DNA of 62,876 nt, filler included, from Sphacelaria rigidula (GCA_964200075.2; 7 parts of 7 records of this genome joined end to end with filler, not necessarily neighbours in it), one strand, 5' to 3'; counted from the whole stretch's first letter, positions 1 to 62,876 are shown. Made by a program: numbers and translations. Notes: a model not told the origin generated them from the sequence alone.

Positions 1-73
1 ATGCGAGGTCAATGGTCTGATGACTATGGCATGCATGATCATGAGTACCCCCTCCCCCCCTCTCCCCCACCCC
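1..73 (+). mobile_element. 3' end of a variant non-LTR retroelement subfamily followed by a C-rich tail
   Basis: gaggtcaatggtctgatgactatggcatgcatgatcatgagtac-cccc resembles the LINE 3' end (gtggtcaatggtcaaacgacta...gagtac-gccc). A second copy lies on the minus strand at ~62574-62626. Confidence 0.65.
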
Positions 74-3339: not shown

Positions 3340-3555
3340 CTGCGATAGCCCCCCCCCCCCTAGAAAAGTGGTTGGTTCGAGGAGGCAGAATATACCTGCA
3401 AATAAAAAATAAAAAGCTGAGCATACCGAGCAGCTGGGAACTCATACTTAGGACGGTTTCGCCCATGTCGCCCGTATGAGGCCCCTCATGCAGTCTGAAA
3501 CCAACAATCATGCGCTGTATGGTCACTTCTTCGTTACAGTTTTGGGGCTGGTTCA
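3340..3555. repeat. Dispersed MITE family with C-run/G-run inside the TIRs
   Basis: Similar sequence at ~9110-9170, ~35580-35820 and 58919-59258 (inverted), sharing e.g. gcataccgagcagc, atgaggc.cc.catgcagtctga and ttcttcgt.acagttttggg.ctggtt. Confidence 0.75.
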
Positions 3556-7935: not shown

Positions 7936-8898
7936 CGTGATGCTTCCTCTTCGCGAAAATTCCTGGTACAACAACAGCCTGCAATACTGATGCGTAAGGC
8001 AGGTCGTCGTCGTTAGCAAAAGTCACAGCCACGATTAGAGCGCGAACAGCGAAACCGACAGACAATATCACGTCACTGTTGGCAATGTCTAAAGATGGGT
8101 GTGCGATTGTAATCACCATTGGCGTCATCAACAACAACCGCTGAGAGCAGTAGCTTTTGACAACGGCGAATCCCGTCACCTCATCATCTCGTTCATCACA
8201 CGTCATGCGAGCAAAGGGCTTGCAGCGGTTGCGACGGTGTCGCGACTCCATGCTCTGAGATTCCGGCGCTTGCTGCCCCCCCCTTCCCGCCGCCGAGAGT
8301 TGGCGTTGGTTCGAAACGACGCTGTAACGCACACCACTCACGTCAGCTTGGCGACGAGGCGACCGTTTTTTAGTGTCGCTCACGTTTTGTTTTCACTTGC
8401 GTTTTATTTTGCGGTAACCATTATGGTGGTCGCGTTAGATCAAATTGTGAGGGATCACGTTGTGAGGGATGGAGAACCTCAACTCTGCGCAAGGCGGATA
8501 GTCTTACTACGTGGTGTTTAAATGGTGAGACACTCACTAGGCGGTGTGCAACCTGTGGTTACCTCTGGAGATCAATCTTACTTGGATTCAGCTCACCCTT
8601 CATGCGACTCGCCGAACACACCACGGCGCTTCGCGATCGCGAGCATGGTCCAGCGAAAACCTGTCGTGCTCCGTCCTGGCTTTGTGGGGATGCAAGGTCA
8701 ATAGTATCATGATTATTGAATGCAAGGTCATGAGAATATCCCCCCCCCCTGGTGAGACACCCATGAGGCAGTGTATGAGCCGTTGCTGTCTCTGGAAGTG
8801 GCGATACCAGATATTAAAGAAACTCAGAGTAGGCTGTCATCCAAATGCAAGATGATCAGTAGGCTCCGGGCCGAACAATCTTTGCAGGGTGCAGCTCA

Positions 8899-8998
8899 NN
8901 NNNNNNNNNNNNNNNNNNNNNNNNNNNNNNNNNNNNNNNNNNTTAATTAATTAANNNNNNNNNNNNNNNNNNNNNNNNNNNNNNNNNNNNNNNNNNNN
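8899..8998. other. Artificial contig linker (also at 17897-17996, 26894-26993, 35891-35990, 44887-44986, 53882-53981)
   Basis: Six identical 100-nt blocks of N44-TTAATTAATTAA-N44 (stops in all six frames). They separate contigs of decreasing length, 8898 to 8895 nt. Confidence 0.99.
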
Positions 8999-21900: not shown

Positions 21901-22329
21901 GGTTACAAAAGAGCCCCCTACGCCAATAACGTGTACAAAGCAAAAGCGATTTCGTGCATTTGACCCAAAACAAAATTCCGGAGAGGTTGTGTTTTTTTAC
22001 TGGATTTTGTCCCGAAAAGTGGTTTATACGACTAAAAGTTTGTGTGTTGTACGTGTTTGTAATAACCTGTTCGTTACGAATTTTCAAGTGCCCATACGCA
22101 CTTTTTTTGTTGACATAAAGGTAAAATATAAAACCCGCGCACCGAGAATCGCTTCGCTCAAGGGTGCCAGAGGGCTCTCAGACAATAAATGAAGGCATGC
22201 CGACGTGAAATGGTCCGTTGACCTTCTTCCGTACAGCTTAGGTGAACAGAAGAGAGAGAATGCTTCGTTCTTGACTATATGTTGGTAGAGTACGGAAATA
22301 GTAAGGGAATGGGCGTACATGTACGCACA

Positions 22330-25222
22330 GAGGACGTGGGAGCTACATATTATTGCCTAGTGTGGACAGGAAGGCAACAAACGAGAGCTTTGGGACATAG
22401 GCGGGATAGGAAGTTGAACAAATGGAAAAGCGATAAACTGGAACTACAAGAGGAAACCAGCAAGAGTTTCAAGAACATATGACCGAAAATGCATTCAAAT
22501 TTTCCGAGGTATTGCAAAGCGTAGGTACAGTCATTACCAAAGTAGAAAGGGATCGGGCAGGAGCGAAGCTTATAAAAAAACGGGAGCAGTTGGTCAAGAC
22601 CACATCAAGTAAAGTCCTGGGGAAGAAACTGATATCTCTATGCAACAGAGCAGTAAAATGGTGGGATGAGGAAGTAGACGAGACTGTAAGAGTAAGGAGA
22701 GACGCCCAAGCCAGATATATATCGAGTAAAACTACAGTAGAATGAGAGGAGTACGCTGAAGCTAGAGAAAAGGTAAAAAAGATGATAGAGAGGAAAGAGA
22801 AGGGAGTATGGAAAAGTGTAGTTAACAAAACAACTGAACTTTGATGGCAGGATGAAGCAAATGTTGGTAGGAATAAAAGGGATAATGGGGAAACAGGTAT
22901 GAGAGACAGACAAGGGGCTAGCCACTCCAAGAGCACAGAGAAAAAATAGTTAGTAGTTCGAAGGGGAAGAGAAGTGCACTAGCAGAGCACTATAGAAAAA
23001 GAGGGACACCAACAAATGACGAGAGGTTCGACGCGAAACTGGAGAAAGAAATCAACGCGTGGGCAGATGCAAATGTGGAGGCATCAAAGCGGGGATACAG
23101 TGGCTCAAGTTACCTATCAGATAATGTTCACAAGAGAGGAAGTAAAGGAGTGTATAGCTGAACTCAAGAACAGAAATGCAGCAGGGGCAGACGATATAGA
23201 GGACGAATTTCTAAAGTTGCGGGAGAGGAAATGATTACCATGACTGTTAGGAAGTATAACTGGATCTGGGGAAACGAGTACCCACCCAAGAGGTGGAGCG
23301 AAGGAGTAGTAGCAGTAGACTTTTTTCAAGAAAGGAGAGACGGCTGACACAGGGAATTATAGAGAGGTAACGCTTCTGAGCACCGTGGGGAGAATAGTCT
23401 GTAAGGTTCTGAACGATAGAGTGGGAATGGTGCTAGAGAAGGAAGAAAAAAACAACAAAGGGCAAGCAGGTTTGAGAGCGAAGCGTAGCTGCGTAGACCA
23501 CGTGTACACACTAGGTAAGATTATTCAGGGTAGGAAAGACACCGGGCTGACAACGTACTGTTTCTCTCTAGACGTGCAGAAGGTCTATGACACAATATGG
23601 AAAAAGGACGTGTGGAAGAAAAAATGGAAAACTGGCATTAGAGGGAAAGTACGGAGACTAGTGAAGACGGCAGAATGTGCGAAAAGTGCTCTAAAGATGA
23701 TGCTAGACGGGGAAATATCGATGTTTTGATACTTTACGACGAGTTGCACAACGGTGTACGTTATCACCCACTTTTTCCAGGGTATTCATAATGGTCTGAG
23801 AAGAACAATAGAAGTAGCTAAACAAGGAGTCAAGGTGGGGCAAGATACGGCATCGGGATTGATGTTCACAGATGATGTCGTGGGGATATCAGAAAGACTA
23901 GGGGCATTGCAGCAGCAAAAAAAAGGGCCTAGAATACACAAGGAAATGGAGAGTAGCAGTAAATAAATACGCGGTACCACTATGTACAGAGAACAAGAAA
24001 AATCCGGTAGAGTTCAAATGGAAGTGGGGAGAACAGGAGTTGCTGGTCGTAGACTAGTCTACATACCTTGGCGTGGAGATATCGAAAATATGTTCCTAGG
24101 ACGCACACAGAAATATAGTAGTAGAAAAAGTTAACGTACAGATGGGTAAGATGGACGTGATCCTAAGAGATTCGCATCTAGATTATAGGATTAAGAGATG
24201 TATCCTGATGAACGTGATCGTACCAAAGCTGGAATATGCAGGAGAAGTAGGGGAGGGGAACGTGAAGTTGGTGTAGGAATTCAAAACAGTACAGGTGGCA
24301 GCAGCTAAGAAAGTACTCAGACGCTCAAAAACGACGAGTAATACAGCATAAAGAACATAATTGGGAAATGTACGCACTTGAAACAAATAGGGGAATGAGA
24401 AAATTGGAATAACAACATACCGTAAAGAACATGCGAACGACGAAATTGCGAGCAATAGTTGATGGGGTTGTACAGAAGATATGACGAAAGGGCAGGCTGG
24501 GATAACGTGGGAGAGCGCAGTTGAGAAAGTATGGGAGGACATGAGAGGAAATCAGGACGAGATAAAGTCCATAGGTGAACGTGAGGGGTGTAAAACCAAA
24601 GTAAGAGACAGCATACGAGTTGAGGGAAAATAAGCGCCAAGACGGGAGTAGACGAGGAAGAGCACATGAAGATATACCCCGGGTTGGGAAAGGGGATAGG
24701 AAAGAAAAAATATATCTGCACGGCTCAATGGACTCCGCGAAAAAATTGAAAGTGCGGTTTCGGGTGGGGGACCTGGACCTTCCAGTAAGAACAAGGTATA
24801 CACCAGTAGTCGGATGGAGGAGGGACTTGATGCACAGAATTGCGCCCGTGGCAAAGCAATAGAGAGTCAAAGTCATTTAGTGACAGAATGTGAACTATAC
24901 AAAGAGGAACGGGATGTATTAAGGGGGAATGTGGGAAGGACATGAAGGTGGCATGAACTCGTTTGATGCATTAGAGAGTAGCGAAAAAAGGATGGATATA
25001 CTATCCGTAGGAGATAGATGGTGGGCAGAGACGACGAAACAGGAACGGGATATGAAGGTAAAAGGTTTTTGTGTAATGTATGGAAGAAACGTAATGAGCG
25101 CCCAAATGTTGAGGATGTCTCTATTAGGAGTGGGTAAGGTGCTCCGTCTCGAAAGGGATGCGTGGCCAATGGTCAAACGACTAAGGTAAGCAACAAATGA
25201 GTACGCCCGCCTCCCCCCCCCC
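22330..25222 (+). mobile_element. Decayed RTE-like non-LTR retrotransposon (RT plus C-terminal Zn-knuckle remnant) with poly(C) 3' tail
   Basis: RT motifs KNRNAAGADDI..EFLK, QAGLRAKRSCVDHVYTL, LDVQKVYDTIW, GLMFTDD, YLGVEI and VIVPKLEYAGEV; C-terminal C..G..ES..H...EC. Many stops and frameshifts. The 3' module at 25139-25205 is followed by a C-run. Confidence 0.93.
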
Positions 25223-26812: not shown

Positions 26813-27469
26813 GAAAACGTCCTTTTTTCACGTCGAAATCGAGGCAAAAATGTGCTTTCGCACATACCCTTTGGGGAAATAGAAGGCTACAAANNNNNNN
26901 NNNNNNNNNNNNNNNNNNNNNNNNNNNNNNNNNNNNNTTAATTAATTAANNNNNNNNNNNNNNNNNNNNNNNNNNNNNNNNNNNNNNNNNNNNCCCCGCC
27001 CCGCCCCTCCTCCCTGCCACCTCAAGTAGATATCTTTGTACAAGTCACCTAGAAATCGTGAACTGCTGACCCTGAACGCACCTCGCCGATGTTGGAGCTT
27101 ATCGGTTATGGTGATAGAGAAACCTGACAAGAGCCCCCGTCGTTTCGCTACTACACGTTGCTCCATTTTTATCGCGTACCGCTGCGCGCACGTCAACGGT
27201 TTATGGTCTCCTTGCTGATATTTTATCGGCTGTTGAGGTATGTGTTGGCTGTGATCTGCCGCTTGGTGTGGGTAGTAAGTGTCTTGGATCTTGTCTAGTT
27301 CGATGCTGGTACCAAGCGTGTACACGATTGATATCCCATTTGGACGAGCGATTCGCTCGTGGGTGCAGGACGGCACGGGTAATCCCGCGTGGTTAACCAA
27401 CCAGTCAACGGTAGGCACACATCTCCACGTGTAGCACCATCAGAAAATTGGGTGGTATGAGTATTGACT

Positions 27470-27625: not shown

Positions 27626-28962
27626 CGATGACGAGAGAAATGAGAACAATAAGTAGGCAACACTTGTACTGTGTACTGTAGCGACAGCAACGCCAGCCCC
27701 CTACCGCATGGGTTACGCTACTACGAGGAAGCCGTGCCAAGAGCGAGAAGCAAAACAAACATAATTTGAAATGATCAAAAGCGGCACCTTATCGGCATAT
27801 CTCGACTGTCGAGGTTGTTCAACGCCATCTAAAAACCAGCGTGGCGGCTCTCATCACTCGCGGGGATTGAAGTAAACCGAAAGCACTTGTACCTTATGGT
27901 CATATTCCACTCAACGGTTTTGCGAAATAGATGATGCACATCTTGTCAAGGTCTGGGGATATTTTCTTTTATATTCAATTTCGGCATTTTCATGTGTACG
28001 GTGTATTGCTATGCACGGTATCTTTTGTTGAATCAAAATACTCCGCCAGATGGTATTGGTCTGTTCATTTCAGCCGCCACATGATCTTGATTACAGTTGT
28101 TGTGGAAGATTTCAAGTTCATGTTACTGTCTCCCCAAGATATTCGTCAAAATAGGGACAAAAAGGCCCTTCGGGGAGAAACGCAAAAAATATGCATCTCG
28201 AACCCATTGCTCGATTTGACCAGTTGATTACTCAACCAAAAGCCCTAGACTATGTAATCACGGATATACCCTGTTTGATGATGTTCGATGCGTCGATCGA
28301 ATGGTTTGACATGGGCGTTGAGCGAAAGTGAAAAAAATAGCGCTATTGCGATCGATCGACATGCGCGCGGAAAATATCGGGAGGATGGCCTGTTGACAAT
28401 CTTAACCTGAGGGAGATGGGCTGACTCCTTGAGACCACGGACTCCTCCCGACGAAGGGGAGAATTAGAAGTGACTACAAAATAAAAAAATAAACTTACAG
28501 ACTGATGGATCGGGTCGGCGGAACTGCTTGCTTGGAATTGTGAGTCAGAGTTTCGATTGAGCCACTCCACAAGATTTAGCTTGAAAACTCGATGCGCTAG
28601 GTACGCGATGCGCTAGGTACGCGAACGTAAATCAGGGCCTACTGGTACGTGAAATGACTTGATTCCTTCTCTCATGAATATCTCGTTCCTAGATTCCGTG
28701 GGGTTACGGGCGTTTGTGCCCCCCCCCCCAGTTGTAGGTGTTCCGGTAGTAGCTTTTCAGCACATGATCCTGACCGTCACTCTGACGTCAAAATCCTTCC
28801 GCTGTCTACAATCTATTGGGAATTCAGCTATGTCGTTGGGCCTCCTTGAAGATTCCTGTTTTATATGAGACTGCACTGAATAATTTTCCACTCTTCCAAC
28901 TCGGACTTGCTCTGTCCCCCGTGGGTGTTCCCTACCGTGTTTTTTGTTGATTCTGTCGAGAG

Positions 28963-35300: not shown

Positions 35301-36869
35301 GGCCGATCCTCGGAAGCTAACTCGCAATAACACTGCACGGACCCGGCGGCAACGTGATACGGTATCTTCTCGCATTTATTCAAAAATACACAATGTATAT
35401 GTTGAACCAGTCTGGTAAGGGCCATTGTTTCCGACACTGCTTGCTTGGTGGTCTCCGAAATTTTCGTGATTGGCAAGGGACCTGATGACTCTCGAACGCT
35501 TTCGAGTGCCACGGCGTACACACAGGGCAACTCTTCGAATTGCTGCGTTGCGGTCTGAATTTTTCGAATTTTGATGCCGCGGTAGCTCCCCCCCCCCCAA
35601 AGCGGCTGGGTTGAGGAGGCAAAATCTACATATATACCAAAATGGAAAACACTAGGCATACCGAGCAGCGGGGAACTCCCACGCTTGTGATAGTTTTCGC
35701 TAATGTCGTCCATATGAGGCGCCCCATGCAGTCTGACCAGCTGTCACGCTCGGTATAGTCATTTTCTTCGTGACAGTTTTGGGACTGGTTTGAGGGGGGG
35801 GGGGGGGGGGGGGGGGGGTGCGGGGCCATCACCCTTGGCTGGAAAAGGAAAGTTGGGAGTGAACATCAAGATGCTTTGTTTGAGGAGAAGNNNNNNNNNN
35901 NNNNNNNNNNNNNNNNNNNNNNNNNNNNNNNNNNTTAATTAATTAANNNNNNNNNNNNNNNNNNNNNNNNNNNNNNNNNNNNNNNNNNNNGGCAGTATTG
36001 ATTGGCGTTATTGATCCACAACTTGCTTGTTCGTACTCCCGTTGCTGCTTTCAACGACGATCTGACTCGGAATTTCGAGCAACAAATGGCCCAAAACACC
36101 CCCCCCCCTATCGTAGGATGACTCAGGTGACGTATCTAGCCCCTTCTGTAGTACTGATGAATCTGTTTTCTTGATGCCAAGGACTTCTCTGATGTACCCT
36201 TCCCTCTCTCGTGATGATGAAACTTTGATGCCGGAACTGTCCTGGTGTGGTGACTTCGGCTGTTGCTGTTACTGCTGTTGCTGCTGGTGCTGCTGATGAT
36301 GATAATAACCGCGACGAGGAGGATGTTCACGATTCTTCTGCCGTGAATTTGCCGATTTTTTGTTGTAGAAAGTGGGATAACGGAAATTCCTGTATCCCTG
36401 TCGTAATGTCCAAGCTTGCTACAACAGTTGACGCGTTTGTTCTTCTCGTAAAACTTCAGCTTCCGACCACTAGCTGTACTTTTGTGTGAGGTTGAAGACT
36501 TGTTTCATGAATATCCACATTGACTGTTGCGCTTGCGGTCTTATTTATTTTCCGAGCTGCACCGCACGCTATTTTGACTTTTTTGCAGAAAGCTGTCGGC
36601 GACAGTTCCACTGTCTTTACTGCTCCTGATGGCTCGACGTCCGCGGGAACTGCTGCTGGTGATAATGCTGTGCCCATCCCCATATTGCTTCTCGGGACAC
36701 TACCGTAGTCGTCAGTGCTGACCCGGTGCATAAGTTGAAGGTTCTTGAGTCCCGAACGATCTTCATGTCAATGAAGTGGAGCATTCCGCTGTTGTCGGTA
36801 TGAATGGGGATCTTGAATTTTCCGGGATGTAAATGAAAGTTGACGGGAAACATGGTTGAAACAACCTTT

Positions 36870-37285
36870 AACAGACAATTCTATAAAATTGGGTTCATCA
36901 ATTAAATGAGGTTCGAGTCCAAAACAGTACTTTCTCCACACTTTCAGCGACGGTGCCCAATGACTTGCTTGTCGGCCTAATGCCCCTCGATCGCGTAGAT
37001 ACGTCTTCAGCGCATTTTACCGACTCTGTGAGCTTACAGCGCTGACCGAAACCGCTGTTTGCCCTGATATCACCCCCTCCTAAAACATAAGTAGAAAAGG
37101 CGGTTTTGGACAGCGCTGTAAGCTCACAGAATCGATAAAATACGCTGAAGAAGTATCTACGCGATCGAGGGGCATTAGGCCGACAAGAAAGTCACTGGGC
37201 CCCATCGCTGAAAGTGTGGAGAAAGTACTGTTTTGGGCTCGAACCTCATTTATTTGATGAACCCCATTTTATAGATTTGTCTGTT
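36870..37285. mobile_element. Foldback MITE with ~190-bp arms, ~35-nt loop, AAC...GTT ends and 4-bp TSD
   Basis: Near-perfect long inverted repeat with CTTT on both sides (36866-36869, 37286-37289). Inserted in the copia element. Confidence 0.93.
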
Positions 37286-37957
37286 CTTTGTCGATCCTTC
37301 AACAGATGAGAACAGATCAGATGTTTCCCCAGACCTGGGATAATCACGCGAGGGGCTCGAATGTTAACAATAGTACAACAAGATGGTCCCTGGAGGGATC
37401 GAACCCCGGTTGTACTTTTGTTACATATACAACGTATCCACGGAGCTATCAGTCAGCGCTAACTGTTTAGCTCAGTTGATATGTTGTGCATCTAACATGG
37501 ATCGGACCAGTCAGCGGTGACTGTTGAGCTCAGTGGATATGTTGTATACCTAACTCCGAACAGAGCGCTGGTTCCCCTAAGAATCAGTGACGACGGCGTT
37601 GAAACGCCTCTTCCCGTACCATGCAGTAGATGACGTCCAGCAGTAAGGATACTCATGGGTGGATCAAGTATTTACATAGTCGACCATTTCTTGTTTGATA
37701 TTAGGAGACAGCTAATCGTCTATGAAATGCCCACTTGAGCCACTGTCAATAGCAATCTTGAAGGAAATTTTGTCGGGTGTACAATAGTTGTGACAGACAC
37801 ATGAACCGGAGAGGAAGGAAAATCCCATGCCGTTTGGTGGTGGATATGTATCGGTCACTGTTGAAGCTGAAATGGCGACGGTAGTATGAGCTTGGCGTAG
37901 ATGGCCGTCGAAGTTGGTGCTGCTGATGTTGCTGCTGTCGTCATCATCTTTATTACT

Positions 37958-37959
37958 GC

Positions 37960-38025
<66 letters not shown>

Positions 38026-38053
38026 GGTGGTGGTGGTGGTTGTGGTTGTTGTT
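37958..38053. repeat. (TTG)n microsatellite, continuing at 38417-38453 after a MITE insertion
   Basis: Direct reading. Confidence 0.95.
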
Positions 38054-38415
38054 AACTCTATATTCGTGAGATTCAGAGTGTAGTTTCAGATTCAGAGTCA
38101 GGATTTCAAACGGAAGAAGTGTTTTCTTTGTGGTCGATTCTCATGCGAAACAGTCTGCGTCACTAATCAACCAACATTGGAGGCTGTGAAAATACCCACG
38201 TTCATTACTCGGATTGGTTGATTGGTGACCCGAACTGTTTCGCATAAGAATCGACCACGAAGAAAACAGTTCTTCCGTTTGGAAAGCCTCCAATGTTGGT
38301 TGATTAGTGACGCGGACTTTTTCGCATGAGAATCGACCACAAAGAAAACAGCTATTTCGTTTGAAATCCTGACTTTAAATCTGAAACTACACTCTGAATC
38401 TCACGAATATAGTGT

Positions 38416-38416
<1 letters not shown>
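38054..38416. mobile_element. Foldback MITE with ~130-bp arms, AAC...GTT ends and an extra internal partial arm
   Basis: aactctatattcgtgagattcagagtgtagtttcaga / tctgaaactacactctgaatctcacgaatatagtgtt; TGTT on both sides. Confidence 0.92.
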
Positions 38417-38453
<37 letters not shown>

Positions 38454-39233
38454 GCGTTGGCTACAGCACTCGAAATCATCATGCTGATCAGTGCGGTGGA
38501 GACCACACCACTTTACAGGCCTGTTTCCATTATTTGACGATCGTCTGGAGTGACAGTCGCGCATACGATAGCCTGATTTGCCGCATGACTAACATTTTCG
38601 CGAAATTTCGATGATTGATTCAAACAGTTCGGCATTGATGCCACCAACATTGATGAGTCATGGTCATGCGGTCTACTAGCCGTGAATTTGCGTGCCATGC
38701 GGTTGGCATACATGTTGCGCATTGTAGTTTCATCTCCTCGATGCTGAAGTTTGGGTCGCGTTCAGCGTTGTACTTGATCTGATCATGATTGCTGGTTAGA
38801 CTTTCAATTACCATGTCAATCTCTCCTCTGAGATATTGTCGCCTATGTCGACAAGCTCGTCTCGTAATTGATATACGTTCGCGAGAAAGATATCCGGGTC
38901 CTTCCCTGGAGACATGGTGATACTGTCCAGTTGTCTCATGAGAATGCGGCGTCTCTGTTTGGAGGAATTTCTGGTATTCAGCTACCAGACCTTCCCACGC
39001 ATGTTCGTCGTTTGGTTTCTCTGAACACTTCGGCTGAAAACGCAAAATATAACTTGCCGCTGAACCAGCTGTCGAAATATACAGAACGATGAACAATTGT
39101 TCGTTACACCGGTCCCAGTTTTTTATGTCACGCTTGGGGGTTACTACCTCTCTTCATTCTCGAAACTCCTCTTATACGCAAGCCAATAACTAGACCATCT
39201 TTCATCGCCATCGTCTACCCCTGTCCGAGATAC

Positions 39234-39318
39234 GTCTCGCAAGGGATGCGCGGCCAATGGTCAAACGACTAAGGCAGGCAGCAAATAAGTACGCCCCCCC
39301 CCCCCCCCCCCCCCTCCC
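39234..39318 (+). mobile_element. Short 3'-end copy of the poly(C) LINE
   Basis: 3' module plus a C21 run; degenerate TSD cccctgtccgagatac / cccgctgtcctacatac. Confidence 0.88.
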
Positions 39319-40205
39319 GCTGTCCTACATACTTCCCTAGTCCTTATTAGTGATTCGATCAGCAGGACCCGCAGCCGTCCGCACCGTCGCCCCCCCACCT
39401 TCTATCCCGTGTTGCCTTCCCTTGAGACAGTCCAACTCCGATCTACCATGTATAGGACACCCCGTGAACTCTCACACAGTGGACCGTAGAAACTACTGCC
39501 GGTACATCCATGGCGGTGCTCAGGGTGAGAGTGCACCCGCTATCCGCGGGTCTCTCTTTTTTGCAATTGGGATGACGTGACTACACATCAAGACGGGATC
39601 TGGAAAACAACAAGCCCACCCCAAACCGTCGATTCCGCCGTGAAAATAGTCGACACTGACACAAAGTTTTGAATACGGAAACAATCGACCCGAATGAGTA
39701 GAACCAACCTGCGGAACCAAACGTTATGCATGATGAAACCATGTTTCTGATCGTGGGCATCGTACTCACCACGCAGTACATATAGTACAGCCCAAACCAC
39801 CACACAATTTGACATAACGGAGCATGGGGGTCGTTAACGTCTTCCCATCAATGACTTATGACACCAACCAGGCACCATGCTGACAAGCACCAAACACCGA
39901 CGCTCAGCAATAACCTAGGCGTGTACTTGAGTATTACGTCGGATGGAGTATTCGGTACGAGAAACCAGGTGACTGGCAACGAACGGCGGAAAGCACACAA
40001 AGCATCGGAAGGATACAAAGCGAAGAGCAAAATTGTAGATTAACGATCATGTTGGAGAGAAAATACGACCATATACCCGACGTCATTTAAGTAAAGTAAT
40101 GATGACCACGACAACACCGCGATGAACAGCACAAGAATTGTACAAACTGACATAGCGACACGATACTATGTGCCATTGCCCGTATTTATCCATAGACTCA
40201 GTCAC

Positions 40206-41746: not shown

Positions 41747-42454
41747 TCAGTTTGTATTCCGTGCACTGGGCCGAGCGTCCTCGAACGAGGCTACTCCCCT
41801 AATCTTGCAGGGCCATACACTCCGCTGCCGCTGACCCTCAGCAGTAGGCCACTGGTCACCTACCCCAGACTCCTGACGCACGATGTAAGATCTTTGCCTC
41901 GGTGTGTTCCTCATACTAGGCTTCCTTCCGGGCTTAAAGAGCTGAATTCTCCGCAGTGTCCCATTTCGGTTGACGTGACCCCCTGGCCGATAAAACAGAA
42001 GCCCGAACATCAAGGGTACGACGAGCCAGAACCCGCTGATTTCTCCCAACGTGCCCACGATGTCCAACGGATCGATATCAGAGAGCCGTAAGTAGCTCTG
42101 TGAGCGGATATCCAACTGGATCGAAGCCAAGGTGTCCGTTCCAAACTTGTTCGTTTGGGTTATGGCACATTCAGCGTTATTCCATGTCGATGCTGTCGTG
42201 TCGGCTACAGAATATGTGTGAGTCATCCCCTTCGTTAGGTTCACATGCTGACTGTATGTTACGAAACCCCGAACATACCAAGCTACCGTGGGGTTGAAGC
42301 TTATCGGCACGTAGAGGGAGATGGGTGTTTCGCGCACGGAATCTTCGTCCGCGTCTCCTTCTGCGAGGTACAATTTCACGCTCTCGAAGGCGCCTGTGTT
42401 CGCCGTGGGATCGTATGAGCTGTTCCAAGACACCAGCATATGGAAGTTCCACAA
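41747..42454 (-). CDS. Terminal exon of a membrane protein with a DEG/ENaC TM2-like segment
   Basis: Pyrimidine-rich acceptor ...ctgcag|TTG, then ~235 open codons: a beta-rich segment, DIDPLDIVGTLGEISGFWLVVPLMFGLLFY, and a basic tail. Family assignment is inference. Confidence 0.7.
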   Translation of the reverse strand: MWNFHMLVSWNSSYDPTANTGAFESVKLYLAEGDADEDSVRETPISLYVPISFNPTVAWYVRGFVTYSQHVNLTKGMTHTYSVADTTASTWNNAECAITQTNKFGTDTLASIQLDIRSQSYLRLSDIDPLDIVGTLGEISGFWLVVPLMFGLLFYRPGGHVNRNGTLRRIQLFKPGRKPSMRNTPRQRSYIVRQESGVGDQWPTAEGQRQRSVWPCKIRGVASFEDARPSARNTN

Positions 42455-43327
42455 CTGCAGTGTACAGCCGCAAATACACACGAGAGAGAGAGCAAGTGAG
42501 GGGTCGACCAACGATGGTGTACGTAAATAATTGTTGTTGCACTGCACATTCAACCTACGTGGTTTCACGGAAAGGGTGACCTCGGTGACGGTGGGAGACG
42601 TTACGAGAGCTTTTGGCAGAAACCACAGTGCTTTGAGCAGGGTGTGAGCTCTATGATTTTCCGAGCACAGCATGGCATGTGAGGTCAGCCCGGTGGCTTG
42701 GTGGTTGTTCATCTGGCCCCCACCGTTTTTGCGTCAAGCCACTACATGATAGCGTCACGTTTCTCAGCCTCTCGTGCTTCCGGCGAGCGTCCAAGTGCCG
42801 GTGAATGCTACGTTAGGGTGAGGCCCGAGAGGGGCTCCTGACAGCACCTCAGCTGTGAGAGGAACTCGCTGATTTGTTAATTCTAGTGTGAGGCGTCAGC
42901 CTCGCAAGATTGTTTGCGAAATCCGCACAGAGATTCACTTTTCCGGGTAGGATACATTCATTTTCAGGGTAAGGTACGTTGGGGGGGGGGAAGGAGGCGG
43001 ATAGTTGAAACCATGACAGGGAGGAAACGACAACAAGGCAGTGTTCCAACCCTTTGTGTTTCTCAAGCACTGCTTAAAAGAAGGTTTGGATCCAACATAA
43101 TCGTTCGATTCTCATGAGACCATGGACGCCTCCTAACATCGATCAGCCCCCTTGTTGATACGCGCGTGTGCCTAGCCACGACAATCACCCGGCTGTGATA
43201 TGTGAGGCCTACAGGCATCTTCGTTGCGGTGTGATATTTTCTGCTACAAGCATGATGTGGTGCGCGCACGTTGAGAGTGATATCACTACCAATGTACATC
43301 CCGAATGAGTAAGAGAAGGAAACTTGC

Positions 43328-43463: not shown

Positions 43464-45038
43464 CTGTCGGTACATGCAGAAGTATACGTGAAAGTAGCGG
43501 GATGACTATTGAATTGGCATTGTGCGGGGGTTCGGCATCGGGTGCTGTGATCCCTAGTGCGCCGTGTTTTCCCTTCGTGTGTCGCGGAATCAGCAGACCA
43601 GTGCATCCCGAGGGCACAAGTAACCATTGCCCAACCTACTGAGCCACACAAATAACAGAGAAATATAAAATGAGAACACGACCCGCAGTGGACGCCGCGG
43701 CGCTCAGCGAGAGCGATCTCCGTCAAGGTAGTGTATTAGCGAAATGTATTGAAGCATCCTTCGATTCCGACTTCAAAGCCCAACCATCACGGCGTTTTTC
43801 CTGGTCGTGCGTTGCGCTTTTGGCTGCAACATTGTTCATTGATGGGCATGGAAATATCATGAATAACAATAATACCAACTACTGGGGGTGGAATGTTTGG
43901 GTTAGGGCTGGGTTAGGGTTGGGTTTTATTTCTTGGTGGAATCGAGTTTTGTTTTTGTTTTGGGAGGGGGGGGATTTTATGTGTTTTGGTAGAAGGGAAA
44001 CACAATATCTAACGCCGATTCTGTGTTTTTGTCACTTTATTCAACGAATGGAAGATGGCGCTGGCTTATATAGAGGCCACAAGTAGATCACGCTAGTGGT
44101 TAAACGATTGAGGATTCGAAATCGCAGAATGAAAACCACGGGAAAAACAATGACAACCGCGGATGGAATAACCTATGTCAGACCTATGAGGACTAACAGG
44201 GGAAATTGACCCTCATGATCTGCCATTGCAGCCTTGACGATTAGTCCAGTTGGTACAATAACACACTGCCATCTGACGATAGCCAAAACCTGGAGGGCTA
44301 GTAACAAAAACGATGTAGCGTGAATTGTGTTATGTCTCAACAGAGAGGTTTGAGATAGTTTAACCCTCTTCACGCTGCGGGTGATCTCCAAAACGCGTCT
44401 TAACTTGTATGATGACTATGTGAACGTGATTCAATGACTTGCACGTTCTTGTTTTGTCGTGCAATCTCCACCTGAGGCACGAATATCCATCGATGATGTC
44501 CTTCTGGGATTCAACGTCCACGTCGGATATCCACTTGGCATGCCATATACTCCTGGGGTTTTCATTTAAGATATCCATCTGGGACATTAATGGTTGCCGC
44601 GGAGCCACAAACAAAGTGCAGTTTCGGGTGAAGGCTCGAAATGGAGATCGATGGCCAAAATGCGGGTCCTGAACAAACTACTCAATATTCCCCCTACACC
44701 TGGGGTGGATGTTACCGTCATGTACGGACAGCCCACACGAAAATCTCAGATGAAGATGCTAGATCGACATCCCGCATGGATGTCCCACATGCACCTTGAG
44801 ATCGGAGGTATGAGTATCAAACAGCCAATCATCTATGTTGAGGATGGTGCTTTTGATTGAGGATGAGAACCCGGAGGATTAAAATCNNNNNNNNNNNNNN
44901 NNNNNNNNNNNNNNNNNNNNNNNNNNNNNNTTAATTAATTAANNNNNNNNNNNNNNNNNNNNNNNNNNNNNNNNNNNNNNNNNNNNTGAACCAGACGAAA
45001 TTTCGCGAAAAAAGTGCACCCCTACCGTAGCATTGCTC

Positions 45039-46727
45039 CAATAGAAGCAGCAAAGTAAGGGATCAAGGTGGATGAAGATATATATGGTATCAGGATTGAT
45101 GTTTGCGGATGTTTTTGTGAAGATTTCAGAAACACCAGAAGGATTACAGACACAAATAGACAAGGCGCTAGAATGAACTAGGAAATTGAGAGTGACAGCG
45201 AATGTGAACAAATGCGCGGTACTCATCTGTAACGAAGATCAGAAACATCTGGTAAAGTTCAAATGGAAGTGGGGAGAAGAGGAACTGCCGATTGTAGACC
45301 AGTATACATACCTTGGTGTAGAGATTTAAAAAAACTGTTCTTGGGATGCACACATAAACAAAGTAATATACAAGGTTAAGGCACAGATAGGTAGAACGGA
45401 CGTGATCCTCAGAGACCCGCACCTAGACACTAGGATCAAGAGATGTATCCTGACAAACGTGATCGTACCAAAGCTGAAATATGCAGGCGAAGTATGGGAG
45501 GGGAACGTGGAATTAGTGAAGAACTTAAACACAGTACAGATGGCAGCAGCTAAGAAGATACTTGGATGCTCGAAAACGACGAGAGATACAGTTTTGAGAG
45601 CAGAGTTGGGAATGTACTTACTTAGAACAAACAGAGACTGAGGAAATTACGATGGAGTGATGCTACGGTAGGGTTGCACTTTTTGAGCGAAAATGTTTCT
45701 CGGGGTGTTACACGGGTCATTTTGAGAATCGGCATCATTTTCACTTGCAAAAGACTGAAAATGATGCCGATTTACGAAAAGGCCCCTGTATACATCTCCG
45801 TGTCCTGTCCCCGGATATTTGGGTTACGCAGTAAGCTCCATATGTTTGGGCTCCTACAAAAACGAGACCCAGGACCAAAAAGTGCAACCCCTATCGTAGC
45901 ACTGCTCGATGGTAATATAGCGTGCAAATCATGCAGAGAGAGGAATTGCCAGCTATCGTTGATAGGGCTGTATGGAAGAAACGCACAAAAGGGAAGGCTG
46001 GAATCAGGTGGGATAGATAAGTCGAGAAATTATGGAAGGAGATAGGCGGAAACCTGACGAAATACTGTCCATAGATGAAGACGCGGGGTACAAGGTAAAA
46101 GTATGAGCTATGATAGAAATAAAGGAAAAAAAAGCACTCAGACGCAAGGTAGACGAGGAAGAACATCTGGAGATATACGGGTGGTTGAGAGAGGGGATCG
46201 GAATGAAAGCATATTTGCATGGCCCAATGCACGCCGCGAAAAATATGAAATTACGATTTCGGGTGGGGGACCTGGACCTTCCAGAAAGAATAACGAGATA
46301 AACCAGTAGTCGAAAGGAGGAAAAAGTAGATGAATAGAACTGCCTCTATGGTAAGGGAATAGAGAGCAGAAGTCATATAGTGGCAGAATGTGAACTATAC
46401 AAGGAGGAGCGGGACGTGCTAAAGGGGGAAATGCGAGACGTGAACGAAGGTGACATGAAATCGTTTGATGCATCAGACAGTAGGAAGAAAACAATGGCTA
46501 TACAAGGAGATGGATGGTGGCCAGAGGCGGCGAAATAAGACGGGGATATGATATGTAAAATGTTTCTGTGTAATTTATGGAAAAAAATGTAATGAGCGCC
46601 GGAATGTAGGAGGTGTCTCTATGAGGAGTAGGAACGGTGCTCCGTCTCGAAAGGGATACGTGGTCAATGGTCAAACAACTCAGGCGAACAACAAATGAGT
46701 ACGCCCCCCCCCCCTCCCCTCCCCTCC
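45039..46727 (+). mobile_element. Second decayed copy of the RTE-like LINE (3' half) with poly(C) tail
   Basis: GLMFAD, YTYLGVEI, RCILTNVIVPKLKYAGEVW and KLRFRVGDLDLP; collinear with 23810-25222. The C-rich tail is at 46704-46727. Confidence 0.93.
45655..45907. mobile_element. Sola2-like MITE (GAG...CTC, 4-bp TSD) inserted in the LINE
   Basis: ~30-bp TIR gagtgatgctacggtagggttgcactttttg / caaaaagtgcaacccctatcgtagcactgctc; GATG on both sides. Another copy's end is at 44987-45038. Confidence 0.88.
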
Positions 46728-49125: not shown

Positions 49126-49698
49126 GCTGCTGATGTTGTCACGGCGCAGAAAACTGCTGTAGTTGCGGACGCACGAAAGACTAATGTTGTTGAGGAGGTG
49201 CGGCAACCTGCTGCAACATGGGGAGGTACGGCCGTCTGCTGCTGCATGGGTAGGTGCTTGCACGGGAGGCTGTTGGACGGATCCCACCGGGTAGAAGGGC
49301 TCGAGGTTTCCAGGGGTTTCCGCTCATTTTTCACCGATTGGGGGTTAGCTATGTGATACTCGGAACGTAAAATCTGCACGCACGTACCCCATGAATGTAA
49401 CATCAAATTGAAAGAACGACGAATGATTCATGGCAATGTATTGCAGTCTCCATGATTCAAGAGGGTGGTGTGTGGTGGAAACATTCCCAATCATCAACGG
49501 CGTGGGGAATGATGTAACCAGTAACATGGACAGCAGCGCTTCACCAGCATAGTATGATAGCGGACAAAAGAAAGGGCAAGAAGAACGAAGGGAACATAAA
49601 TATGACCAGGCAAGACAGATTCAAGCATGTGTATTTGGCCAGGGTGTCACGTGTCGGGGACAGCAAAGGATAATTTCTTCAACTTCGACCACTGTAAA

Positions 49699-49917
49699 CC
49701 TGTTCGGACACGCGAGGGAATGTTGGCTCCATGTCAGCCTGTTCGAACACGCATGAAAAAATCGTGGTCCCCTATTCACCTGTTTGGACACGCATGAAAA
49801 CTCTTGGTCCCCTATCAACCACTTCGGACACGCGTGGGAAACTCTCGATCCCTGTCAACCTGTTCGGACACACATGGGAAATCCTGCCCTACTGTCAACC
49901 TGTTCGAACAAGCATGG
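49699..49917. repeat. ~40-bp minisatellite, ~5.5 units
   Basis: Recurring cctgttcg(g/a)acacgc.tg.gaa.......cc.tgtcaa. Confidence 0.9.
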
Positions 49918-50623: not shown

Positions 50624-53600
50624 ATGGCAGAACAAGAGGGTAGGCCTGCTACAGTAGTCGGTGAGCAGGGTGGTTTTGAGCAATTGGGGGAGGTGAATAG
50701 CCAGCTGAGTTTGATGGCTGAGCTACTGCGTGACTTGTACTGAAACCAAGCTGCATTACAGAGTGACATTAACAATATGAAGGTAGTAAGAGAGTCCGGG
50801 GTGGGGTGGGGGGGCGTACTCATTTGTTGCTTGCCTTAGTCGTTTGACCATTGACCACGCATCCCTTTCGAGACGGAGAGACGGAGAGAGTCCGGGGGCG
50901 CAGAAATCAATGGCGTCCCCGATAGTGATGGTTTCGATAGTCAACAGGGGGAATCCAGCATAAGCAGGACAGTGGAGCGACATGGTGCCGGAAATCGAAA
51001 AGACCGACGGTCCATCGGGAGTCAAGCTGTTCCGGAGGAAGGAGCGCGCGATGCAGGGGGCAACGAGACCTGAATTCATACGAGGAACATCAACCCCTGA
51101 GCAAAAAAAATATCCTCTTGAAATACCTCAACGCATTGCCGTTCGACTATCACGTTCAGAAGCAGTTGCTGGAGGATCGAGAGGGCCACTGACACGGGAG
51201 GTTGTGCTAGTCTCGGCCCGAAAGCGCTTTGAATCGACCGCTTTGAAGCAGGAACTTACCCGGGGAAAGAAGTCATCCCCGGGCGACCAGGCTCTCCCTG
51301 CCAGGGGTGGGACCGGAGAACCGAGCGGTGCACACCGCGAGGAAAACCGGGAAAACCCCCGGGCTCTGGTCAGAAAAATTGCGGGAGCCAGAGTTCTAGT
51401 AGCTCTAGGTCGGCATCGTCGGACGGCAAACCGGCGATTGTGAAGCTGCTCCGCTGCCACGTTTGCGACGAGGAGGCGACGCACCGAGCCCGGGACTGCC
51501 CGAAGAGATACTGCGGGAGGTGAGGTCAACAGGATCACACGTCCTGGAACTGTCCGAGATCGACAGCGAAGAAAGAAGATGTGGCGATGGCGATGGGCGC
51601 GACCGACGACAGCGACAGCTCCTCCGTTTACTCGGTGGCGGACGGGGAGGCTTTCACCTTTTTCGACACCACCATCAACGGCGAAACAGGCGAGTATGCA
51701 TTGAGTGTTGGGCAGGGGGGTGATAGACAATAGGGTGAGGGCGAACCGTGGGTATTTGACACGGGGGCTACCCAGCACTTATCCCACGATTCCCATGGGA
51801 TGGCGGTGTACATAGAGTGCCAGGGTATGGTACTACGGTGCGCGGGTGGTAGTACTTACCCGATCGTAGGCAGAGGAAATTTGTCTCTTGCCTTCAGATC
51901 TGACGGACAGGATGTGATGATCAAATTAATGGATGCTGACCATGTACCTGATGTCCGTCATCACCGCTTGTCAATCATGAAGATCCTAAACATGTGACAC
52001 ACCTACACTGGTTTTCGTGCAGGTTTCAGGGTAGATCTCATTTCAGGAAATACACTGAAAATACCCGGACAACCACGTCAACTCGAAATGTACGCCCGCC
52101 GCCTCGACCAAAGTGGTAGTGACAAGTGTGTTTCGGCATAGTATGCTGTTATTGACCCGGCGGCTCCGCCTACCCCCAGATCGCTGACATCAACGAGTTC
52201 TACTGTGCTCACGCCCGCGTCCACGAGGACTTACTGCGAAAGACCGCGAAGCAGCAGGAAAAGCAGCTGGCTGGGCAGCTACAGCCCTGCCGCGGCTGCT
52301 CAGTGACGAAGGGACTGCGACGGCCGATTCCAAGATCGACGTACACGAGAGCAGCTGAGTCAGCGTCTAGGGTGTTTGTAGATCTTTCCGGTCCGAATTC
52401 AGTCAAGTCTCACGGGGGAGAGTCGTACACGACGATAGTCCGAGATGATCACTCACGGCACACGAGGCCGTATTTCCTCCGGAAGAAGGATGAGGCAGAG
52501 AGATACTTCGCGGAATACACTGCATGGGTTTCTCCAAGAAAAAATGAGATAGTTCGTAGCGATGACGGGGGTGAATTTTCGCAGGGTGCGTTTGGTGAAC
52601 TGTGCGACAGGGAAACTATCAAGCAGGGAAAGACGACTGCCGACTCACCCCAGTTCAACGGTGTTGCAGAGCGAGTGTGGGAATCATCGAAAGAGCAGGC
52701 CTTGCGGCCAGGATCCAAGCATCTGAGTTTTACCCAGATGAGCTCATCCCAAATGGTGACAGCCTGTGGGCTGAACAGGCAAACTAGGCGTGTCAAGCCC
52801 TGAACTGTACCGCTACCTCGGCAAACCCAAACTGCATATCACCGTATGAGATGTGGTACGGATCACCACCGGACGGTGATCTCATTCCGTTCTTGAAGCT
52901 TAGGTTTTCTAGGAGAAAGCAGACAAACAAATTACAGCCGAAGGCGGAAAAAAGCTGATATTTGAGCCCAGCCCCAGGCTACTCACGTGACGCGATGCAA
53001 GTTTTGACTGCACGAGGATCTATTACCGTAACAAGACATGTAACATGGGCAAGTATGTCCGCCGCCCCCTCCCGCACACTACAGCAAGCGGTCCAGACGC
53101 CGGGCGAGCCGAAGGATTCCAACGTCGATCAAGGCCAGGAATTGAGCGAGGAAAGGATGGAAAACTCGACAGTGGACACTTCGTCCAGCGGTTCCTCAAG
53201 CGCACCGTTCTCCCCGCCGAGTTCCGTTGGTGGGAGGGGCGGAGCAGCACCGCAGTAGTGGAGGGGACGAAGTGCCTTCACCGTCCTCACGAGGAGGGGG
53301 CAGGCGGGGTGATAGCAGAGATCCCCGTTCCAGGTTTCATCAACGGAGGGGGTGAGGGGGAGCTGGAATCATCACCATCATCACCATCATCACCATCATC
53401 ACCATCATCACCATCATCAACGCCAACATCAGCACCGATGCCGACACCAGCGCCAACGCCGACACCTACGCCGGTGCTCACATCGGCATCGTACACTCCC
53501 TCGTCGCCCGCACTGTCACCCTCTTCTACGGGTCCCTCGTAAGATAGCCGGGGGGTTGGCGACGCTCCTCAAGTCCCGAGGACCGAGAAACGCCATCTCA

Positions 53601-53881
53601 CGTGGGCTGACGAGTTGCCAACACTAAGGGCGGGGCGTACGAGGAGCCAAACGCGCGAGGCCATGGGGTCGGCACACACACAAGGCGAAACGCTGGTGGC
53701 TAGTGGAGCGGAGGAGAGCAGAAAGCAAGCGGAGATGGCGCTGACGGAAATGGCCGACGACAAATAACAGCCGGTTTTCAATTTTGGGGTTGATCTCTAA
53801 AATGGGGTTGAAGCGGCATTTTTCTCTTCTTGCAGGGAAGACGCGAAACACTAGCGACCTAGCGAAGCCATCTTCCCCCCC
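50624..53881 (+). mobile_element. Ty1/copia internal region (gag remnant, protease, GAG-pre-integrase, integrase), degenerate
   Basis: WVFDTGATQH; DADHVPDVRHHRLS; H..VH...PCRGC; VFVDLSGP...IVRDDHSR...VRSDDGGEF...SPQFNGVAER. Integrase lies directly after protease. Confidence 0.93.
50802..50884 (-). mobile_element. Short 3'-end copy of the poly(C) LINE inserted in copia gag
   Basis: Perfect 13-bp TSD agagagtccgggg (50789-50801, 50885-50897). Confidence 0.93.
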
Positions 53882-54496
53882 NNNNNNNNNNNNNNNNNNN
53901 NNNNNNNNNNNNNNNNNNNNNNNNNTTAATTAATTAANNNNNNNNNNNNNNNNNNNNNNNNNNNNNNNNNNNNNNNNNNNNAACACAACCCGTACCGGGG
54001 GGGAGATGAGTTGATCCCTTGACACCACGGACTCATCCCGTGGAAGGGGAGGGGTTCAAAGTGTGAGGAAAAACAAATAAAAAGTGTTTCCTCAGCGATT
54101 GTTCCCAGTTTTTTTTTTTTCTCGGATACATCTATCATGTGACCACGGCTGGATCATGACTACCTGGGGGGTCAGTGTCAGTCAAAGTGCGACAATCAAT
54201 CAATCAATCAAATCAAAGTGTGCGGCCTCAGAAACCTTTTCGACCAAAACGTACACCCCTACCTTAGGATCCCACCATAGGGCGCTCGAGATAGTATGTA
54301 CGATAGGAGGGTCAAGATGCAGGTCATTTACGGCACATACTGGCTGAGCCAAAACTTAATTGTGGATTCGCTCAGACAGGATTCGCTCGTAACCTGGCCA
54401 ATGTACTAGTATATTTCGAAGGATAACCGAATGGGTTTTGGCGGCTCGTGTCATTTTGTCTACAGCAATGAAGTTGTTTTCAGACGCTAACCTTAC

Positions 54497-55802: not shown

Positions 55803-56201
55803 TTGAGGTACGTTTCGTTCGGGTAGCAGGAGAAGGAGAATTTGGAATCCTGATTGATTTTGTCGTGGGGCGATACCAGCATATTTCAGTGGCTCGTACA
55901 CACACGTCGGCTATTTCTTTAAGTAAGAATGACACAACCGAGCTGTGTGCGGCATGGAAACGCAGCAACTAGTTTAGCTCGCCGAGATTGCAAGCAAGTA
56001 CTGGAGTAGTAGTTATCGTGATTTGCACTCCTTTGCATCGCGTCTGTGTGATTTTTTCTGTGTTAGATTTTAATCATTATTCTAGTTCCTCATACCCTAT
56101 TTTGGGTAGTTAGCCTGTGACCACGAAAGGAAGGCGTCCGCACCAGACACCCAGTACAGATTACTACTACGCAGATATCGGAAAGGTTGTTGACGTGAAG
56201 G

Positions 56202-56252
<51 letters not shown>

Positions 56253-56966: not shown

Positions 56967-57074
56967 ATAATAATAATAAAAATGATAAAAATGATAAAAA
57001 TGATGATAATGATGATGACGATGATGATGATGATAATAATGATGATAATGATAATAATGATGATGATGATAATG

Positions 57075-57111
<37 letters not shown>

Positions 57112-57150
57112 CAACAACAACAATAATAACGATAGTAATAATAATATTAA
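56967..57150. repeat. Compound (ATA/ATG/ACA)n intronic microsatellite; (AAC)n also at 56203-56252
   Basis: Direct reading. Confidence 0.95.
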
Positions 57151-57384
57151 TGGTGATAGGCATAACTACACCATCTTCGCGGATGCAGCTGTGGTTTCTC
57201 AAAATAGCTACAAAAAGCGGGAATGACCCTGCGGCATCATCATACACTCACCTCCACCTTACGTCGGGCGAATGTCTATCTAAAGCCACCATTACGTTTG
57301 ATGTCTTTGGTCAATACATATCGTTTCGGCGTACGCACGCACAGAAGGAGGTACTGCTGCTGTCCTTCGGGAATCCCGGCATAC

Positions 57385-58918: not shown

Positions 58919-59258
58919 GACACTTTCTACGATAGCCCCCCCCCCCCGCCCCCCAATCCAGTGCTCCGTCTCGAAAGGGATGCGTGGTCAATGGTCAAAC
59001 GACTAAGGCAAGCAACAAACGAGGACGCCTCCCAAACCAGCCCAAAAGTGCCACGAAAAAAAACGGATATACAACGCCTGATGTTTCGGTTCAGGCTGCA
59101 CGAAGCGCCTCGTATGGGCGACAATTACGAGAATGAATTCAAGCGTGGAAATTCAAAGTTCCTCGTTGTGCTCGGCTATTTCCATTTCGATTTACGTGAA
59201 GATTTTGCCTCCCCAAACCAGGCACTTCTCTGGGGGGGGGGATATCGTAGAAAGTGTC
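58919..59258. mobile_element. MITE with TIR gacactttctacgata.ccccc; a LINE 3'-end copy (58961-59033) is inserted in its C-run
   Basis: gacactttctacgatagccccc / gggggatatcgtagaaagtgtc; the nested module is flanked by cccaatccag / cccaaaccag. Confidence 0.88.
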
Positions 59259-60490: not shown

Positions 60491-60920
60491 ACCTTACATA
60501 TGCTTTTAGTATTTTTTATCGTTGGTACGATGATTCACTGTATTTACTGAGCCTTAGAGCGAGCAGGATCGATGTTGTTATTCTTCCCGCGCTTAGCCCA
60601 CGATGACGTGCGCGTTCCCGTGGGCATCGCGTCGAGGAACGAACACGCGGTGCGAGCTCTTGAAGGCTGACGTATTTGGGACAAACTGAGCGAATAAACG
60701 TCAGTTTTTTTTATTTTTTTCCTACGTCGGCGTTTGAGGACAATGCCTTAGGAACACGCAGTGACAGTACCGTTCATAGCTTGTCAGACAGGCAATGACC
60801 CCCCCCCCCTACACCTGCCTTCATGAATCAAACGTGTTCAGGATTTTCCCGCAATCGGTCACACCTATAAGACACACAGAGTTGCAAATATTTTAGGGAT
60901 CAACGGGGATCAACACGCAC

Positions 60921-62127: not shown

Positions 62128-62629
62128 CTTCGGGAAGAGAAATGCGAAGGCGTCGTGTTACGGCTCGAGAAACGGCTGGGGACGCGGGGATCCTGTGCCA
62201 CGAAATTGGGATCAGTTGATGATAGCGACGCATCTATGCAGAGCAGTAGCTCCCGTTCTGGTTGGTCAACGTGCCGGCGTACTATCAAAATCTCCACAAC
62301 CGTGCACGATGCGGCGTTTAGAAATTGACTCTGGCAGAGCGTGTTGTGTGTATTTTCGCTGAACGTTTCCGATCGACTTCGTGGCGCGGATCGACATGAC
62401 ACTGAGTGAACCGAACAGGAACATTGCGCTCCGACGTGGGGAGAATAGTCCATTTTACAAGTAGCATGCTGACCGGCAGTCAGCCAACGACGGTCGTGGA
62501 TGGATATCTCAGGTCTGGTATGTTTTCCAGTACATTCCCTTTCAAAACGTCTCACTTCCCCCCCCCCCCCCTGTGTACTCATGATCATGCATGCCATAGT
62601 CATACGACCATTGACCTCAAATCCCTATA

Positions 62630-62876
62630 AAGCCGGGACGGAGTACGCCGGGTTTTCGCCGGACCAGGCGGGGGCTATGAAGTAGCACAGTCAACAGGGG
62701 GGCGTACTCATTTGTTGCTTGCCTTAGTCGCTTGACCATTGACCACGTATCCCTTTCGAGACGGAGCACCGCACAGCAACAGGGGGGAGGGGGTGGGTAC
62801 TTATTTGTTGCTTCCCTTAGTGGTCAATCCTTATTAGCCTGGTCCGGCGAGAACCCGGCGTGCTCCGTCCCGGCTT
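62630..62876. mobile_element. MITE with ~40-bp TIR, containing two nested LINE 3'-end copies (62697-62770 and ~62782-62827, minus strand)
   Basis: aagccgggacggagtacgccgggttttcgccggaccaggc and its reverse complement at the window end; nested TSD gcacag(t)caacagggggg. Confidence 0.88.

Follow-up and report, generated by a model that had tools for sequence, protein, structure and literature searches.

The DNA analysed here, called the window below, is a stretch of 62,876 nucleotides from the brown alga Sphacelaria rigidula. It consists of seven pieces of 8,895-8,898 bp each, with N...ttaattaattaa...N spacers between them (8899-8998, 17897-17996, 26894-26993, 35891-35990, 44887-44986 and 53882-53981). 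The pieces are separate small contigs, and the repeat copies found on them are independent loci. On one of them, the open reading frame at 41747-42733 (minus strand) has 100% identity to a protein from S. rigidula. When the 100-nt flanks of all C-runs were compared with one another, the dispersed repeats that emerged belonged to three families only, here called A, B and X. The same comparison gave one local repeat near 18.1-18.7 kb; its other matches arose where the flanks of adjacent runs overlap. Several contig termini lie in or beside C/G runs or LINE ends (1-73, 17872-17885, 53875-53881, 53997-54003 and 62836-62876), which suggests that the assembly breaks at repeats of this kind.

The window also holds features outside these families. 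An open reading frame at 52156-52803 (plus strand) gives a weak match to an integrase core (rve, E=1.8e-4, below the Pfam cut-off); it probably derives from an LTR retrotransposon or a DNA transposon that has since decayed. Two inverted repeats can form hairpins, one at 36870-37285 with arms of 191 nt (92% complementary), the other at 38054-38416 with arms of 139 nt (91%). Both adjoin long trinucleotide arrays of the GTT/CAA type (37949-38060), and similar arrays stand at 56196-56250 and 56967-57160. At 49677-49916, six units of ~40 nt follow one another in tandem, with 63-80% identity to a reference unit.

Family A is represented by seven 3' ends. These have their 3' end in common and are truncated at various points on the 5' side, with lengths from ~34 nt to ~2.9 kb. 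The longest copy, A5, is degenerate (22258..25222, plus strand); it corresponds to residues 381-1360 of a protein here called P0002, ends at 25205, and is followed by a tail at 25206-25222. A second degenerate copy, A6 (45087..46727, plus strand), covers P0002 residues 910-1360, ends at 46703, and has its tail at 46704-46727. The reverse transcriptase piece of A5 (23319-23729) matches RVT_1 with E=2.6e-10. It also matches seven proteins at 59-67% identity, among them P0002 (1360 aa) and P0004 (1328 aa).

Each of these two relatives carries Exo_endo_phos and RVT_1 in one protein, the latter with E ~1e-31. The endonuclease domain (PF03372) lies N-terminal to the reverse transcriptase; it spans residues 170-392 in P0002 and residues 142-383 in P0004. 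A search of PDB sequences with the endonuclease region gave one marginal match of the ExoIII type (E=0.061), plus chance matches. A fragmentary Ectocarpus protein, P0006, matches P0004 at 353 of the 391 positions aligned in the main block, where gaps take up 26 positions.

The two proteins end in ...GAPSRKG(C/R)VVNGQMTKASNK, the same peptide that results when the 65-nt core shared by the short A copies is translated. What appears as a 65-nt "element" codes for that terminal peptide, followed by TGA, GTACG and a C-rich run. The short A copies are, then, LINE ends truncated on the 5' side, and this LINE has a 3' UTR of ~5 nt. The initial annotation had taken them for 5'-truncated retroposon copies, and this is borne out by the end of a LINE reading frame, the variable truncation, and target-site duplications (TSDs) that fit an APE-type LINE. 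It had also described the endonuclease as absent or unrecognisable in the window and looked to intact copies for it. The domain has indeed largely been lost by 5' truncation, the longest copy starting only at about P0002 residue 381, and it is carried by the intact relatives, as PF03372 in P0002 and P0004.

Of the seven A-type ends, six are followed by a C-rich tail. In A1, A4, A5, A6 and a further truncated copy, A', the tail extends past the target; in A2, the C6 is the TSD itself. RNAalifold, applied to nine A and B 3' ends, returned a weak hairpin of 8 pairs with 0 compensatory pairs, and so gave no covariation in support of an RNA structure.

Four pairs of repeats flanking short A copies had been offered as TSDs that begin with C's. 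All four are there (A1 to A4), and each begins with 3-6 C in element orientation. The significance of each was judged by comparing its score with 2000 shuffles of the 5' flank. A1 lies on the minus strand. Its 3' TSD copy (50789..50801) reads CCCCGGACTCTCT in element orientation (agagagtccgggg as written), its C-rich tail past the TSD (50802..50814) is CCCCCCCACCCCA, and its LINE 3' end (50815..50878) holds the last ~20 codons, TGA and GTACG, and matches P0002 residues 1337-1360 by tblastn. The 5' TSD copy (50885..50897) agrees with the 3' copy at 13/13 positions, the perfect 13 bp that had been reported, and 0/2000 shuffles reach this score. The length of ~17 nt given for the tail is likewise correct: 17 nt (50798-50814) separate GAGTACG from the portion of the TSD that is not C, and of these only the final 4 are duplicated target. 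At the 5' junction of A1 there is a 6-nt duplication (50879-50884), where the 8-mer CTCCGTCT stands twice in tandem (50879-50892), reaching into the end of the TSD. Microhomology or slippage during the joining of the 5' end may have left this footprint.

A2 (62685..62787, minus strand) is a LINE 3' end at 62703-62770 between TSD copies at 62685-62702 and 62771-62787. The duplication, CCCCCCTGTTG(A)CTGTGC, matches at 17/18 positions with one indel (0/2000 shuffles), and A2 has no tail past the C6 of its TSD. It sits at the tail (62788-62796) of the older truncated copy A' (62797-62830). A4 (39218..39332, plus strand) has its TSD copies at 39218-39233 and 39316-39332, its LINE 3' end at 39234-39293, and a tail of C21+T at 39294-39315. 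Its duplication, CT(A/C)CC(C/G)CTGTCC(G/T)A(G/C)ATAC, matches at 15/19 positions ungapped, and 39/2000 shuffles do as well; it also aligns ungapped from CTACCCC.

A3 (58949..59040, plus strand) consists of a LINE 3' end at 58962-59027 between TSD copies at 58949-58961 and 59028-59040. Its duplication, CC(C/T)CCCAA(T/A)CCAG, is not significant alone (562/2000 shuffles). Here, the support comes from an empty site. A3 interrupts repeat X, a sequence of ~200 bp, whose three other occurrences have no such interruption. The two flanks of A3 align to the same 13 columns of intact X copies, and this confirms the duplication. The insertion point is the terminal C-run of the repeat X at 58936-59241; the junction is CCTCCC, which is part of the TSD, and there is no tail past the TSD.

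Family B comprises a 206-nt copy and three partial copies, and its alignment with A covers the final ~60 nt of the latter. B looks like a short non-autonomous partner that shares the 3' end of the LINE. Scans for tRNAs and against Rfam found no match anywhere in the window, and there is no evidence for an origin of the short copies as tRNA- or snRNA-derived SINEs. The full copy, B8 (8523..8760, plus strand), has its 206 nt at 8534-8739, a C10 tail at 8740-8749, and TSD copies at 8523-8533 and 8750-8760. The duplication, TGGTGAGACAC, matches at 11/11 positions (1/2000 shuffles) and has no C at its start; tttaaa precedes the 5' copy. At the very start of the window (B7, 1..73, plus strand), a B 3' end at 1-48 is cut by the start of the contig; its C-rich tail occupies 49-73.

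The remaining two B copies lie head to head at 62558-62876, starting at B positions 110 and 109, with A2 and A' between them. One (B9, 62558..62672, minus strand) occupies 62572-62672. Its 3' flank in element orientation is ACA followed by G14 (62558-71), the opposite homopolymer, with no C-run, and no simple history of target-primed reverse transcription explains this G-run. The other (B10, 62836..62876, plus strand) runs off the end of the contig.

Five TSDs are thus definable, all from this one 62-kb sample, with lengths of 11-19 bp; four of the five start with 3-6 C, and the exception is B8. Over both strands of the window, CCC stands directly before 1.46% of the non-C bases (1369/94054). 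At this background, the chance that a TSD would start with CCC in 4/4 cases is ~4e-8, and in 4/5 definable cases ~2e-7. The 3' flanks of the copies differ from one another. No TSD could be defined for the A-type 3' ends at 25205, 46703 and 62797, nor for the three B copies other than B8; in these, the 5' end has eroded, is lost at a contig end, or shows no match. Inspection by eye of A5, whose 5' end is eroded, and of A6 gave nothing convincing for a 5' end or a TSD. An automatic scan from 54 C-rich runs (exact 9-mers, 11-mers allowing 1 mismatch, 13-mers allowing 2) recovered only A1, B8 and a few matches that are likely due to chance; older TSDs are too decayed for a scan of this kind.

One might suppose, of course, that the C's are an artefact of where the boundary is drawn, any C that adjoins a C-tail being counted as TSD. 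Every 3' TSD copy is contiguous with a tail, and the left edge of every TSD is not fixable within the C-run. However, the C's also stand in the 5' copy, directly upstream of its non-C part and 60-70 nt away from the tail, in 4/4 A copies. They are therefore target bases, and an origin of the pattern in boundary placement is very improbable. The tail itself had been described as bringing extra C-rich sequence with the element. This holds as well: 13-22 nt lie past targets of only C4-5 in A1 and A4, and in B8 a C10 stands at a target without C.

Long C/G runs are over-represented in this DNA. Runs of at least 10 nt number 17 for C/G against 0.07 expected under a first-order model, and 2 for A/T. 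Among the 17, four are tails of A or B copies, one adjoins B9, five bound copies of repeat X, one (1872-1881) follows another LINE-like end, and six stand elsewhere. These last six (10-21 nt), which have no recognisable element beside them, are at 10702-10722, 17872-17885, 28719-28729, 36099-36108, 42981-42990 and 60799-60809. The LINE-like end is at 1851-1885 on the minus strand; the run follows ...GTTCGTAC, and the C-rich tail resembles the ends of A and B. A third family may be represented here. The sequence TATCG(G/T)AGGATGACTC follows a C-run on two contigs, at 74-100 after a B tail and at 36109-36135 after a different end (...agcaacaaatggcccaaaaca), and could be a repeated target or the end of an unrecognised element.

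Copies of repeat X lie at 3349-3560, 35588-35818 and 58936-59241 (reverse), with a partial copy at 9100-9153. Whichever strand is read, a C(n) run forms the left border and a G(n) run, of up to G25, the right one, except that the copy at 3349-3560 has no G-run on the right. Outside the runs are short inverted flanks (...CGATAG / CTATCG...); the two flanks of one copy resemble each other more than they resemble those of other copies. Repeat X looks MITE-like, with homopolymer ends that this likeness leaves unexplained.

This abundance of runs raises a second possibility, which is that the C-rich TSDs are a by-product of nesting. The LINE would then insert into older (C)n tails or repeats with C/G runs simply because these are abundant or permissive, and no sequence rule would operate. 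Two of the four positive cases do sit in long C-runs that existed beforehand, A2 next to an older copy, at its tail, and A3 within the C-run that ends repeat X, and long runs are, as noted, in large excess. Nesting of this kind is a contributor to insertion in C-runs, and long pre-existing runs may simply be abundant or accessible. But A1 and A4 are at isolated runs of C5 and C4, with no recognisable older element there, and despite the excess of runs only the small fraction of positions given above follows CCC. As a full explanation, nesting is unlikely.

We return to the reading that the repeats are copies of a brown-algal LINE of the APE type, most likely RTE-X, accompanied by B as a partner, and that they would have been inserted by target-primed reverse transcription through pairing at a C-run. 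We put the probability of this reading at roughly 80%. The nick in the bottom strand would fall just 3' of a G-run, as in 5'-...GGG(G)/N, and the G's so freed would pair, in a register that varies, with the C-run that ends the template RNA. Past the target there are 0 (A2), 0 (A3), 13 (A1) and 22 (A4) extra nt of tail. Polyadenylation cannot make a C-run, and the tail would therefore be copied from the source element. This, in turn, would mean that reverse transcription starts inside a longer transcript, as it does in LINEs with short tandem repeats at their ends. Pairing between primer and tail would help without being obligatory, as B8 indicates, and older tails and other C/G runs would be natural targets, as in A2 and A3. 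A model in which a G-primer meets a C-tail appears to fit the data. Against a strict rule that the target be a C-run stand B8, which inserted without C's, and B9, which is at G14.

What chooses the site in such an insertion may be viewed in two ways. In the first, the endonuclease is nearly unspecific, and TSDs start with a C-run only because nicks that end in G's prime far better on the C-tail. This would account for the varying register between tail and target, and for the existence of an insertion without G's (B8), which is expected if pairing is optional. The same data, however, fit a preference of the endonuclease, and the base after the presumed nick varies (G, T, A, G/C), four sites being too few to judge. 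Selection at the priming step is a serious possibility, somewhat short of an even chance.

In the second, the endonuclease is itself a G-run-specific nickase, a true mirror of the L1 endonuclease and its TTTT/AA, and the pairing of primer and tail is secondary. All four A-family TSDs start in C-runs, which speaks for such a nickase. The 3' end of B9, which has almost no tail of its own, lies at a C/G homopolymer of the wrong polarity, and here the duplex run could attract the nick. Yet B8 integrated at a site without a G-run, and a preference in cleavage is not separable by sequence data from the survival of primers that happen to pair. A nickase of this kind is possible, though short of likely. 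Judged from the insertions themselves, the choice between an endonuclease preference and selection of primers would seem to suit the data either way.

Mammalian L1 elements end in a poly-A tail, are inserted at an endonuclease nick of the form 5'-TTTT/AA, and have TSDs that start with A's. The family described here is like L1 in being an APE-type LINE, in its probable target-primed reverse transcription, in its 5' truncation, and in having a homopolymer tail complementary to the primer that the nick would leave. Structures of L1 ORF2p can be aligned with the reverse transcriptase part of P0002 (E about 1e-20). The two differ in that the tail is C here and A in L1, and the 3' UTR is ~5 nt here. 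Further, the non-autonomous partner here shares the 3' end of the LINE, which suggests that recognition of the template is stringent rather than relaxed.

Microsatellite- or site-specific LINEs, reportedly a subject of Kojima and Fujiwara in 2004, offer another comparison, since there, too, the target resembles the element's own tail. Long target arrays, in contrast, are absent here, the 5' flank offering C5 in A1, C4 in A4 and none in B8. A LINE of this type was considered and set aside; the C-runs in the 5' flanks are short or lacking, and the 3' flanks are not the same from copy to copy.

Simple-repeat tails other than poly-A are found in several LINEs. According to the parts of one survey that bear on 3' ends (PMC3747384), tails are (TGTAA)n in UnaL2, (TAA)n in the I factor, (CAA)n/(TTG)n in RTE, and (CA)n/(CAA)n/(CCAT)n in green-algal RTEX; its Table 3 and section 4.4 give green-algal RTEX and plant RTE short-tandem-repeat ends instead of poly-A. 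The family in the window is like these LINEs in having a simple-repeat tail, probably templated, and SINE-like partners that share its 3' end. Slippage or re-registration is plausible in both; the repeat unit here, though, is one base.

The closest likeness is in brown algae themselves. The curated transposable element table for Ectocarpus (PMC12477816, supplementary file 1) describes RTEX-1_Ec32 as "single EN-RT ORF; (C)n 3'" with a "C-rich" TSD, and RTEX-2_Ec32 as having "(C)n termini/TSD", again with a "C-rich" TSD. Its entries for RTEX-N1 (604-607 bp) and RTEX-N2 (188 bp) are of non-autonomous elements with 60-100 bp of the 3' end in common, also marked "C-rich". The other LINE families entered in this table, among them RTE and CRE, have (CAA)n or (CA)n ends. 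Those portions of the main text of PMC12477816 that concern RTE-X mention the families and their abundance, with no tail or mechanism among them. Saccharina also has RTEX-1, as far as the relevant part of PMC4421812 goes. Our literature search for a C-tailed LINE or its mechanism found no paper that discusses either, the sole record found being the supplementary table of PMC12477816.

As far as the table's entries go, the window family resembles RTEX-1/2_Ec32 in its single EN-RT ORF, its (C)n 3' end and its C-rich TSDs, and family B resembles RTEX-N1/N2_Ec32 as a short non-autonomous partner sharing the 3' end. Homologues of its protein exist in Ectocarpus. The host here is Sphacelaria rigidula, of course, and the families are likened by their listed traits. 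Because the window family fits every listed RTEX trait and has these Ectocarpus homologues, it is filed as a Sphacelaria member; membership in RTE-X, in the RTEX-1/RTEX-2 group, is most likely, judged by the Ectocarpus annotation and the shared traits.

The observation that opened this analysis is confirmed as real, and its reading as sound. The trait itself, a (C)n tail with a C-rich TSD, is not new, as it is annotated for Ectocarpus RTE-X. What is new is its presence in Sphacelaria, the near-absent 3' UTR, and the two exceptions, which bear on mechanism. The surprise for a specialist is limited, because the phenomenon is on record and the mechanism follows the standard logic of target-primed reverse transcription. 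Tail and TSD are found also in a distantly related brown alga, and the trait is probably old in the group.

A more far-reaching proposal is that integration by brown-algal RTE-X is built on the C homopolymer throughout. Here, a G-run-specific endonuclease and an obligatory (C)n primer site, regenerated by slippage, would act independently of polyadenylation and be conserved from Sphacelariales to Ectocarpales. We regard this as doubtful. If it were true, the same activity would have seeded the excess of long C/G runs, including those that bound repeat X.

A LINE whose tail does not come from polyadenylation would be a clean natural system in which to apportion the choice of target between the endonuclease and the pairing of primer with template. 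Such a LINE could, in addition, account for the frequency in these genomes of long C/G homopolymers, a hindrance to sequencing and assembly.
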